A stretch of DNA of 61,595 nucleotides, the filler included, from Candidatus Omnitrophota bacterium (lineage in GTDB: Bacteria; Omnitrophota; Gorgyraeia; Zapsychrales; JBDRMG01), in assembly GCA_043812495.1 (NCBI GenBank). It is 5 parts of 5 records of this genome, joined end to end, with 100 filler letters (N's around TTAATTAATTAA, not from the genome) between each part and the next. Parts side by side here need not be neighbours in the genome. Positions count along the whole stretch, not along the records: positions 32,516 to 48,757 come from JBDRMG010000054.1; 4 more parts are not named here. One strand, 5' to 3'. Numbering within the stretch: position 1 is the first letter of the stretch; each line of letters begins with the position of its first letter. Made by a program: the position numbers. Below are positions 39,001-42,000 of this stretch, piece by piece.

Positions 39001-42000
39001 TTCTCCGGTGACAAAAGTAGTGAGACCGGTTGTTGTGTATTCTGGCTTTATCACTATACAAAAATAGCGATCCCTGAAGCCCACCCAATCAACAAATCCC
39101 TGTCTTTGCAAGTTATCCTTTGGTGAAAACTTATACGCATTTCCTTTTCTCTCGATCATATGGTTGATGGAGTAGGAGTATTCAAACAAATTATAATCAC
39201 GCGGCGAATCTAGCTTTCCGTCTAATTCGCTTGTATCGAGAGAGAAATTTATCAAAGAGAATTCCTTTGAAATCGTCTGGTTTGAAATATTCTCGATAAC
39301 TATTTCGGTCTTGATTGTATCGTCATTGCTTGAGATGTCGTATGTTTTTTGAATTGCAACTTCGTTATCCCTAAATTCATAAGCGGCGATTTCGTTATCC
39401 GCATCCTTTAAATCGAAGTCAAGAGAGCTGTATCCTACAATATTAAACAATCCTTTGACCGGCATTACAAGGGAATGCTGGTTGATTTCAATGGATTTAA
39501 TGGATCCTCCGATATTTGTTAAATATATCTTAACCTCTTTGTTTTCAATTGTTTGCACATCTTCCGAAATTGTTTTCTCTTCTAATTTTTCCCTGATTTT
39601 GTCCGGTGTTGCAAAATTTGGTTGTATAGATTGTTCGGAATCTTTCCGAACTAAATAATCCTCTTTAACAGAATAGACCGGCCCGGATTTCTTCGCTGGA
39701 AAATTAAACGCTATTAATACTAATAGTGTTAATGTTATGGCTATTAATGTTTTTTGTTCCATAGTCTATTTTACCGGATCGTATCCTCCCTTAGAAAAAG
39801 GAGAGCAACGTGCGATTCGCCATAGGGATTTTAAGGAGCCCCTCAGAGGGCCATGCTGATGGAGTGCGTCTATGGCATAGTCGGAGCACGAGGGAGCAAA
39901 CCGGCAGGAGGGTGAGAAAATGCTGCGGCTGACTTTTTGATAAAGCCGAATTAAACAAGTCATGAGGTTGGTCATCGTCAATTCTTTGATTATGTCGTAA
40001 AGGCCTTAGATGGTAACGAGCCGCTTACGGCCTTTTGCGCGTCGTCTCTTTAAGACATCGCGTCCGGAAGAAGTTTTCGTTTTTCGACGGAAACCATGAC
40101 GTTTTTTGCCCTTGAGGATCGTCGGTGTTTTTAAATGTTTCTTCATGGCTGGTCAATTATAGCATAGGGTCTTTTGAAGTCAAGTCTTTTCGTTTTTGAA
40201 GACGTTGGAAATTCATCCTTCGGGCCTGTTGTGACAAAAAATAAGAAACAAAAATTATTTCATTGAAAAATAGAAAAGGACTGTTATAATGCCTGGCGAA
40301 GAGAGTGGGTTTATTTTTGTTCTTTTGGTGAAAAGGAATAAAATGATTTCTGTTCTCGTCGGAAAAAATGCAATCGCTCGACGCCGATTCTGATTCTTGT
40401 TTGGGATTATGCCGTTTCGCTGGTCGGGCGAACCATTGCACGAAGCCTATTTTTGGACGCGAGCCTCCTAATTTTTCGCTATTGGCCAAAATACATTCTG
40501 TAATGCTTGACTATTGGATAAATAAAGAGGGCAAAGACAACACCTTAGGATAATTACATATCTAATTGATATATATGTGTTTAGCTGATGTGGATAAGTT
40601 GTGGATTCTGTTAATCGCGCCCCCTAAAACACCTTAACTGTCTCTTAATTTATTAATTTCTATGGATCTTATAGCGGCCTGGAAAGACATTCAAAGCTCC
40701 TTGCGGGAAAAAGTCGGGGTAACAACATACGAAACCTGGTTTTCGTCTCTTAGCGCCAAGGAAAAGAATCCTTCGACGCTTATTATCGGCGCGCCTGACG
40801 AGTTTTTTAAAAATTGGATAATCGAACATTACGGCCGAGTCATCAAGGAATCCTTCGACGGAATTTCTTCAAAAAACATCACAATTGAATTTGAAGTAAA
40901 TCCTCAAATATTAAAGAAGGGCACGCAAAGTCGGTTGACGCAACTCGAGAAAGGGTTTCAAACCCCGGATCCTCAACAAGCCAGTTTAAATCCGCGTTTT
41001 CATTTTGATAGCTTTGTAATCGGATCGTCCAATCGCTTTGCCTATGCGGCTTGCTTGGCTGTGGCTGAATCCCCGGCCAAGGCCTATAACCCCCTTTTTA
41101 TCTATGGTGGGGTGGGCTTGGGTAAAACACACCTCATGCAGGCCATTACCCATAAGATCAAAGAGATTAACCCAAAATCCAAGCATTGCTATATGACATC
41201 CGAGCGCTTTACCAATGAGCTGATCGATGCCATACGCCATCGTGCGACAGCTAGTTTTCGCCAAAAATATCGAAATATGGACGTTCTTTTAATTGACGAC
41301 ATTCATTTTATTGCCGGCAAAGAATCAACTCAAGAAGAGTTCTTTCATACCTTTAATACCCTGCACGATAACCACAAGCAGATCATTATTGCGTCGGATC
41401 GGCCGCCCAAGGCTATCGCCAACCTCGAAGAAAGGCTGACCTCGCGCTTTACCTGGGGGCTTATCACCGATATCCAGCCTCCGGATTTTGAAACACGCGC
41501 GGCCATTTTAAGAAAAAAGATTGAGCGCGAGCCTGTTCAGGTCCCTGATGATGTTATTGTTTTTATTGCCCAGGAGATTAAAACCAACATCCGCGAGCTG
41601 GAGGGAGCGCTGATCCGGGTTGCGGCCTATTCGCTTTTGGAGGAAAAAACCATTACTTTGGACATGGCCAAGCTCGTTTTAAAGGATATGGTCATGGAAA
41701 CCTCAAAAATTATCAGCATTGATATGATTCAAAAGGCCGTGGCCAACCATTTTAACGTTGCGCTTTCGGATCTCCGATCAAAAAGAAGGAACAAGAATAT
41801 TGTTCTTCCGAGACAAGTCGCTATGTATTTGTCGCGTCAGTTGACTAATTTTTCTTTTCCTGAGATCGGCGGGGCTTTTGGAGGAAAAGACCACACCACG
41901 GTTTTGCATTCCTGCAAGAAAATCGATAAAGAAATGTCCAATGATAAAAAAATGAGAGACCTGCTCGAGCAACTATCAACAGAAATTAAAAGATAACGAG

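Follow-up and report, generated by a model that had tools for sequence, protein, structure and literature searches.

Omnitrophota of the order Zapsychrales retain RNase P RNA and lack a recognisable gene for its protein subunit, RnpA

Published accounts describe RnpA, the protein subunit of bacterial RNase P, as an essential cofactor in vivo that is found in nearly all bacterial genomes. RnpA sits at the P2-P3/P1-P4-P5 junction of the RNA, where it contacts J18/2 (PMC9433436), and holds the leader of the substrate at positions -4 and -5 (PMC3488217). Structures of the protein-free ribozyme have been solved in vitro (PMC13254310), and the activity of the RNA alone is negligible at 4.5 mM Mg2+ (PMC9945441). 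Among the papers found, the exceptions to the presence of rnpA are lineages that have only HARP and the endosymbiont Candidatus Hodgkinia cicadicola. The HARP-only Aquificaceae (PF08745) have the reduced layout rpmH-yidD-yidC (PMC10941002), and the order of events proposed for them has both enzymes coexisting first. In Hodgkinia, where rnpB is present and rnpA apparently absent, tRNA 5' ends are correctly formed (PMC6581868). We found no literature on RNase P in Omnitrophota and none linking the candidate phyla radiation, RNase P and rnpA. A term search of the main text of the complete-genome preprint and the phylum paper returned no mention of RNase P, although the gap may be visible in marker tables in their supplements.

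The Zapsychrales locus has the same reduced layout as that of the Aquificaceae, and like Hodgkinia its genome has rnpB and no rnpA. Hodgkinia, however, lives inside insect cells, has a tiny genome and may use host proteins, whereas in Omnitrophota the state is common to 1-4 Mb genomes of many families and reflects a clean excision from an intact operon. The window, that is, the whole stretch of DNA analysed, is 61,595 nucleotides long, and the locus lies on contig C54 (window 32516-48757) of a genome (G000) that is 90% complete and, like all those compared, of the MAG type. On the minus strand, rpmH (40006..40146) encodes a ribosomal protein L34 of 46 amino acids (PF00468, E 1e-11), whose N terminus carries the L[KT]TPT variant that characterises the clade lacking rnpA. 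It is followed by a spacer of 30 nt (39976..40005), the usual rnpA site, which spans 260-630 nt in relatives with the gene, then by yidD (39766..39975, 69 amino acids from ATG), which has YidD-like counterparts in nearly all homologous loci, and by yidC (38158..39762, 534 amino acids), named by sequence and position and with homologues in the loci of relatives. An alternative TTG start at 39981 would give a YidD of 71 amino acids beginning 24 nt after the rpmH stop. The spacer contains no remnant of rnpA and no frame that could hold RnpA. The genome-wide survey's note had described yidD as lying 30 nt behind rpmH, then yidC, with rnpA gone, and the coordinates confirm this.

Downstream of yidC, still on the minus strand, is a short gene resembling the Jag N-terminal domain (37958..38158), whose syntenic counterpart in a genome of family f26 (G242) matches PF14804 (Jag_N). 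Next come two genes that we take, from their motifs, to be parA (37881-37024) and parB (37022-36186). On the other side, dnaA (40662..41996, plus strand) diverges from rpmH and is followed by dnaN and gyrB; as dnaA-dnaN-gyrB is the canonical origin region, rpmH is here in its native setting. The gene for the RNase P RNA lies outside the window, on the plus strand of contig C29 (14617-15255, equivalent to L001:1409-2047).

The genome was also said to be without RnpA elsewhere, and this was borne out. The Pfam model PF00825 found RnpA in 10/10 control bacteria and had no match here at E<=10. A filter-free HMM built from 203 RnpA sequences, run against six-frame ORFs, returned only noise: the best E-value was 0.88 in this genome and 0.33 in the roughly 97% of G242 that was covered, and reversed ORFs reached 0.49. 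Among 151 genomes of the order, PF00825 scored over its cut-off in one, with sub-threshold fragments, mostly containing stops, in eight more. The single match, in G118, is on a 2.5-kb contig that carries a second, foreign-type rpmH, and the genome's own rpmH leads directly into yidC; the contig is probably contamination. A profile of 53 Omnitrophota RnpA sequences, able to retrieve 60,551 proteins from a library of 1.84 billion, found the same G118 protein (E 5e-18, for a protein outside the profile alignment), nine further scattered matches in order genomes at E 0.006-0.05, and no real match in 69 rnpA-less genomes of other families. The RnpA-negative genomes searched by profile include single-contig ones. 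Unannotated RnpA matches also occur in phage records.

The junction itself was read in 50 rpmH loci from 47 order genomes: in 46 of them yidD comes next, at -1 to 222 nt, while four have no yidD either. At loci with RnpA the gap between rpmH and yidD is 262-629 nt (29/30 loci in one set and 39/39 in another). None of 80 named records retrieved with the clade's L34 has RnpA; 74 have a gap of -1 to 222 nt (2 nt in Ca. Aceula meridiana), and in the remaining six, Ca. Zapsychrus exili included, yidD is missing and rpmH leads straight to yidC. HARP, the protein-only RNase P that the survey had also failed to find, is in 0/151 order genomes, and its profile matched in G000 only a longer PIN-type protein (E 0.011). 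RNase P RNA was found in 137/151 order genomes (133 over cut-off) and in 88 of the 90 high-quality ones. The loss of RnpA is therefore shared by the order, as had been proposed from a smaller sample, with one probable contaminant among the 151.

The further claim that the rest of the phylum keeps rnpA did not hold. Of the 225 genomes sampled from other orders, just 150 have RnpA, and it is missing from the other 75, including entire families. In eight of these 75 rpmH is missing as well, probably through gaps in the assemblies; among the remaining 67, all 40 loci that were read have an rpmH-yidD gap of -4 to 114 nt. In the canonical state, rnpB accompanies RnpA (44/44 genomes tested). In the RNA-only state, rnpB was present in 23/23 tested genomes outside the order that lack both rnpA and HARP, and the families concerned are f26, f32, f36, f37, f39, f42, f44, f45, f48, f49, f50 and f52 (the codes f1-f63 are internal labels; the order name fits the named records). 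In the HARP-only state are f27, f30 and f34, which hold all 12 over-cut-off HARP matches among 251 genomes. With HARP and neither rnpA nor rnpB, these three families are the full match to the Aquificaceae, whereas Zapsychrales and the other RNA-only families keep the RNA and have no HARP. As rnpB was found in 0/12 HARP genomes, the two are mutually exclusive. In one genome, G153, none of rnpA, rnpB and HARP was detected.

A tree of four markers (DnaA, DnaN, GyrB and YidC) groups Zapsychrales with most of the RNA-only families and with two HARP families, f27 and f34. In FastTree (79 rows) the group takes in the RnpA-containing f25, with support of 1.0; in IQ-TREE (54 rows, excluding 19 close relatives and poorly filled rows) the rnpA-less group has an SH-aLRT of 94 with f25 outside, and f27 and f34 are nested within it at 90. 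The L34 variant is common to the rnpA-less group, f27 and f34 included, and was seen at 1/37 loci with RnpA. A single origin of the loss in the main clade is moderately supported, and the losses in f48, f52, f53 and f30 look like separate events. The loss of rnpA thus predates Zapsychrales, is common to about ten other families and recurs separately. The simplest sequence, in which we have moderate confidence, is that rnpA was lost first and that HARP was then gained and rnpB lost in one branch. This large-scale loss of an essential gene is real and apparently unreported.

The RNase P RNA of this genome had been placed at C29:14709-15082 as a type-A RNA. The RF00010 match there was confirmed (74.7 bits, E 6e-23, below the gathering cut-off of 100 bits), but the alignment to the Rfam model stops short of the true end on either side. 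Pairing in P1, P2 and P4 (the last with CR-I) sets the limits of the RNA at C29:14617-15255, making it 639 nt long, not 374. At this length its folding has a z of -10.5, and the predicted P1-P3 form. The core is present, with CR-I and CR-V forming P4, and with P1, P2, P3, J5/15 and the L15 GGU. Inserted hairpins account for the extra length; they lie in P3, the S-domain, P15/16 and P19. Both the CR-II T-loop motif and P13/P14 are missing, and one long hairpin, atypical for the order, replaces the T-loop motif and P11/P12. The low Rfam score comes mostly from the insertions and the lost S-domain module rather than from decay of the catalytic core.

This RNA is represented in a groundwater metatranscriptome (run X1), where one contig of depth 59 matches L001:1404-1683 with two differences, its start lying five bases upstream of the 5' end that we predicted, and a second matches L001:1697-1884 with none; the genes upstream are almost without coverage. 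The contigs, which give neither strand nor level and come from a kind of library that can contain DNA, fit transcription of the RNA. They also show that its odd S-domain is not an assembly error. In runs X2-X4 the matches were for the most part short and derived from other organisms, apart from an exact piece of 134 nt in X2, and these runs were given no weight.

Compared with canonical RNase P (RF00010 with PF00825), Omnitrophota RNAs have the same P1-P4, CR-I, CR-V, J5/15 and L15 GGU, and RnpA-containing Omnitrophota share the architecture without P13/P14. The differences are the missing RnpA, an altered P2 top pair and J18/2, and in G000 the length of 639 nt, the hairpin insertions and the lack of CR-II. 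We parsed 80 RNAs, 28 from RnpA-containing and 52 from RNA-only genomes, dropping a second, foreign-looking copy in G005, and added 20 lower scorers because the first Zapsychrales RNAs were the top Rfam scorers. With a parser that demanded the CR-I, CR-V, J5/15 and L15 anchors with at most one mismatch, CR-I and CR-V were intact in 52/52 and 20/20 RNA-only RNAs, and J5/15 and the L15 GGU in 52/52. The top pair of P2 is C-G in 27/28 RNAs from RnpA-containing genomes and in only 22/70 RNA-only RNAs, the others having U-A, U-G or mismatches, the latter in family f26. The third base of J18/2 is A in 28/28 against 19/70; it is U in 47/50 Zapsychrales and 4/4 f32 RNAs, two mis-anchored rows having been corrected by hand. 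This base is A330 in E. coli numbering, anchored on G332/A333 (PMC9433436). Both positions are upper-case in the Rfam consensus, and the RNA of G000 has the J18/2 U and keeps the C-G pair.

Across these related, non-independent genomes, two positions where RnpA docks appear from the alignments to have shifted throughout the clade; no structural passage that we found names either nucleotide as a direct contact. A relaxed P2 pair is as compatible with a vacant site as with a new partner. The idea that a bigger RNA compensates for the protein was rejected, as only some RNAs are enlarged and the core medians are not raised (303 and 334 nt in RNA-only genomes against 311 nt with RnpA). CR-II is missing in G000 and G264 and kept, by pattern, in 19/20 relatives, the twentieth having a variant. 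P13/P14 are missing in most RNA-only RNAs and in most RnpA-containing Omnitrophota, so that this loss is phylum-wide and unlinked to that of rnpA.

Among small host-associated cells without part of RNase P, Nanoarchaeum equitans has leaderless tRNAs. Omnitrophota differ in that they keep the RNA, cluster their tRNAs and show no promoter peak directly at +1. G000 has 41 tRNA genes and a tmRNA, with clusters spaced 25-65 nt apart, and 56 of 193 tRNA genes in RNA-only genomes lie less than 150 nt behind another tRNA. Promoter-like boxes are found 6-37 nt upstream of +1 in the 193 genes, with no peak at the leaderless distance. The clustering and the spread of distances rule out leaderless tRNAs; the spacers and the boxes well upstream mean that leaders exist and that 5' processing is needed. 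CCA is encoded in just 36/117 tRNA genes of seven RNA-only genomes, compared with 43/48 in five with RnpA, so one contact between RNA and substrate would be missing unless CCA is added first.

The survey's reading was that RNase P here is RNA-based and lacks its known protein. It stood up to larger samples, to a profile built for the purpose, to searches for HARP and Pop5 and to the test for leaderless tRNAs, but its scope was too narrow. We are fairly confident that the RNA catalyses without any protein of the RnpA family. Synteny and the profile searches show that rpmH-rnpA-yidD-yidC has lost rnpA, and a single deletion, in an ancestor that Zapsychrales shares with the other families of its clade, has moderate support. 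The RNA, kept with its catalytic core and present in the RNA library, would still cut the 5' leaders of tRNAs, because it vanishes exactly where another RNase P, HARP, appears; its loss in the HARP families suggests that elsewhere it still does tRNA 5' maturation. In some families HARP would have been gained later and the RNA then dropped.

Our best reading, which we hold tentatively, is that catalysis by the RNA is assisted by a non-homologous helper. The jobs of RnpA, binding the leader at -4/-5 and lowering the need for Mg2+, would most likely fall to a basic RNA-binding protein not homologous to RnpA, which may be a general protein that moonlights rather than a dedicated subunit. Slow growth would ease the task, as would the changes in the RNA where RnpA once docked. 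We consider a helper likelier than none because the RNA alone has negligible activity at 4.5 mM Mg2+ and the RNA of G000 has lost a tRNA-elbow module.

We looked for such a protein among the 293 proteins of up to 220 amino acids shared by G000 and G242, and found no RnpA, Pop5, Rpp21, Rpp29, Rpp30, L7Ae or YlxR (Pfam E<=1e-8). Pop5 (PF01900) was in 0/5 genomes including G000 and positive in four control archaea, YlxR/RnpM was not found in the five genomes tried, and full-length RNase J was not found in G000, G062, G289 or G242. Four orphans were profiled and about 54 other unassigned shared proteins judged by reading alone, in a BLAST-filtered screen that misses fast-evolving, larger or moonlighting proteins. 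One basic orphan of 130-150 amino acids (candidate X, G000 C1:20023-20454; L282:18085-18474) is present in 27/36 genomes of the RNA-only clade, 0/30 with RnpA, 0/2 with separate losses and, one broken weak match aside, 0/11 with HARP. It was rejected as an obligatory subunit: it is in 105/151 order genomes and 0/6 of genus g13, near-complete genomes lack it, a profile found it in 0/5 further genomes, and its neighbours vary. Its predicted fold is a three-helix bundle with no PDB match at E<=0.001 and is not RnpA-like. The protein seems instead to mark the clade. A second orphan, candidate Y (G000 C29:27579-27893), was rejected because it is syntenic after plsY in RnpA-containing genomes too, and its all-beta fold (best Z 7.0, to unrelated sheets) is not RnpA-like. 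The ESM Atlas yielded no usable match for either. The other two orphans, ubiquitous or patchy, were uninformative.

The failure of this screen to find a universal substitute counts towards the possibility that the RNA works without any protein, aided only by ions or polyamines, its own abundance, slow growth and compensatory substitutions, the A-to-U change in J18/2 for example. So do the freedom of the P2 top pair to vary and the new, near-fixed state of J18/2. Hodgkinia, which processes its tRNA 5' ends with rnpB and apparently no rnpA, offers a precedent (PMC6581868), and extra copies of rnpB partly suppress rnpA49 in E. coli (PMC11251521). We nevertheless think it doubtful, as reactions of the RNA alone are negligible near physiological Mg2+ (PMC9945441), the RNAs show no consistent added structure (core medians of 303-334 against 311 nt), most lack P13/P14, with G000 and G264 also lacking CR-II, and encoded CCA is scarce. 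It is equally speculative that the clade has gone back to a protein-free RNase P with an adapted docking site, as a stepping stone to the HARP-only families.

An RnpA homologue that has relocated and diverged past sequence detection, or been fused into a larger protein, is unlikely. RnpA is a short protein of variable sequence (mean column identity 24%) and eroded relatives occur nearby, N-terminally shortened in f23 and low-scoring in f25, but even these pass Pfam at E<=4e-7. The profiles found nothing above noise in 150 order and 69 other genomes, single-contig ones included, the six-frame search would detect fusions, and the two orphans whose folds were predicted are not RnpA-like.

Less probable still is that another protein nuclease matures tRNA 5' ends, with the RNA kept for a different role or decaying. 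The hairpin repeats that have invaded the RNA of G000, its loss of CR-II, and G153, with no rnpA, rnpB or HARP detected, would fit this reading. However, the catalytic motifs are invariant clade-wide, the RNA is kept where HARP is missing and gone where it is present, and full-length RNase J was not found in the four genomes tried. Finally, although the genomes are mostly fragmented MAGs and many members of the class are proposed epibiotic predators (PMC10066038), an artefact of assembly or binning, largely refuted by a contiguous junction in 47 order and 40 other genomes and in 80/80 named records, or import of the protein from a prey or host cell, an uptake of folded cytoplasmic protein by an epibiont for which we saw no support, is scarcely credible.

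A large clade of tiny, uncultured Omnitrophota thus keeps the ribozyme without RnpA or HARP. It provides hundreds of natural RNAs with which to ask whether RNase P RNA works protein-free under cellular conditions and, if the RNA cannot work alone, a new RNase P subunit is to be expected. Three states occur within the phylum, on one tree, RNA with protein, RNA only and HARP only, which suggests an order of events unlike that proposed for the Aquificaceae.

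The Zapsychrales belong to the RNA-only clade of Omnitrophota, which carries the RNase P RNA gene rnpB with neither rnpA nor the protein-only enzyme HARP. Across the rnpA-less clade the L34 protein encoded by rpmH has an altered N-terminus, with L[KT]TPT and a basic residue changed to Gly (window 40006-40146; loci L143-L211), a change that may relate to RNase P or to the ribosome alone. In some Zapsychrales yidD is absent as well, and rpmH directly adjoins yidC (L142, L166, L189, L199, L458). CCA is encoded in 36 of 117 tRNA genes of RNA-only genomes (G000, the genome under study, and L365-L424), so that the majority are without it, and in 43 of 48 from RnpA-containing relatives.

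The RNase P RNA of G000 (L001:1409-2047, equivalent to C29:14617-15255) lacks CR-II and P11/P12. Hairpin repeats sit within its P3, S-domain and P19, and its 5' start overlaps the 3' end of an upstream RNase H-like gene. CR-II is also missing from the RNA of G264, an RNA-only genome, and of G190 and G296, both RnpA-containing members of family f25. Three RNA-only genomes, G204 (L226), G340 (L230) and G373 (L234), have a complete type-A S-domain including P13/P14; as their relatives differ, this hints that rnpB was replaced or recombined in them. A second, canonical rnpB in G005 (L013, contig C210) and a second rpmH-rnpA-yidD in G118 (L003, contig C9) probably lie on contaminant contigs.

Two unnamed basic proteins of G000 were tried as candidates for an RnpA substitute and failed. 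One, a three-helix protein (C1:20023-20454; L337-L363), is restricted to the RNA-only clade; it has 1,267 homologues, and among those listed with a name most are hypothetical proteins from Omnitrophota. The other is all-beta, with six long strands (C29:27579-27893; L314:13715-14086). Its gene keeps its position after plsY across Omnitrophota, and fold comparison gave no clear match.

Outside the main clade, rnpA appears to have been lost separately in single genomes: G348 (f48, L156), G152 (f52, L159) and G153 (f53, L160), the last with neither rnpB nor HARP detected. In family f23 RnpA is shortened at its N-terminus (L111-L113, L137-L139), seemingly by its first helix, with an rpmH-yidD gap of 262-309 nt, possibly a separate stage of erosion. 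Families f27, f30 and f34 encode HARP (E<1e-43; L212-L221), and neither rnpA nor rnpB was found in them. While f27 and f34 are placed inside the RNA-only clade, the HARP-only state of f30 looks like a switch of its own.
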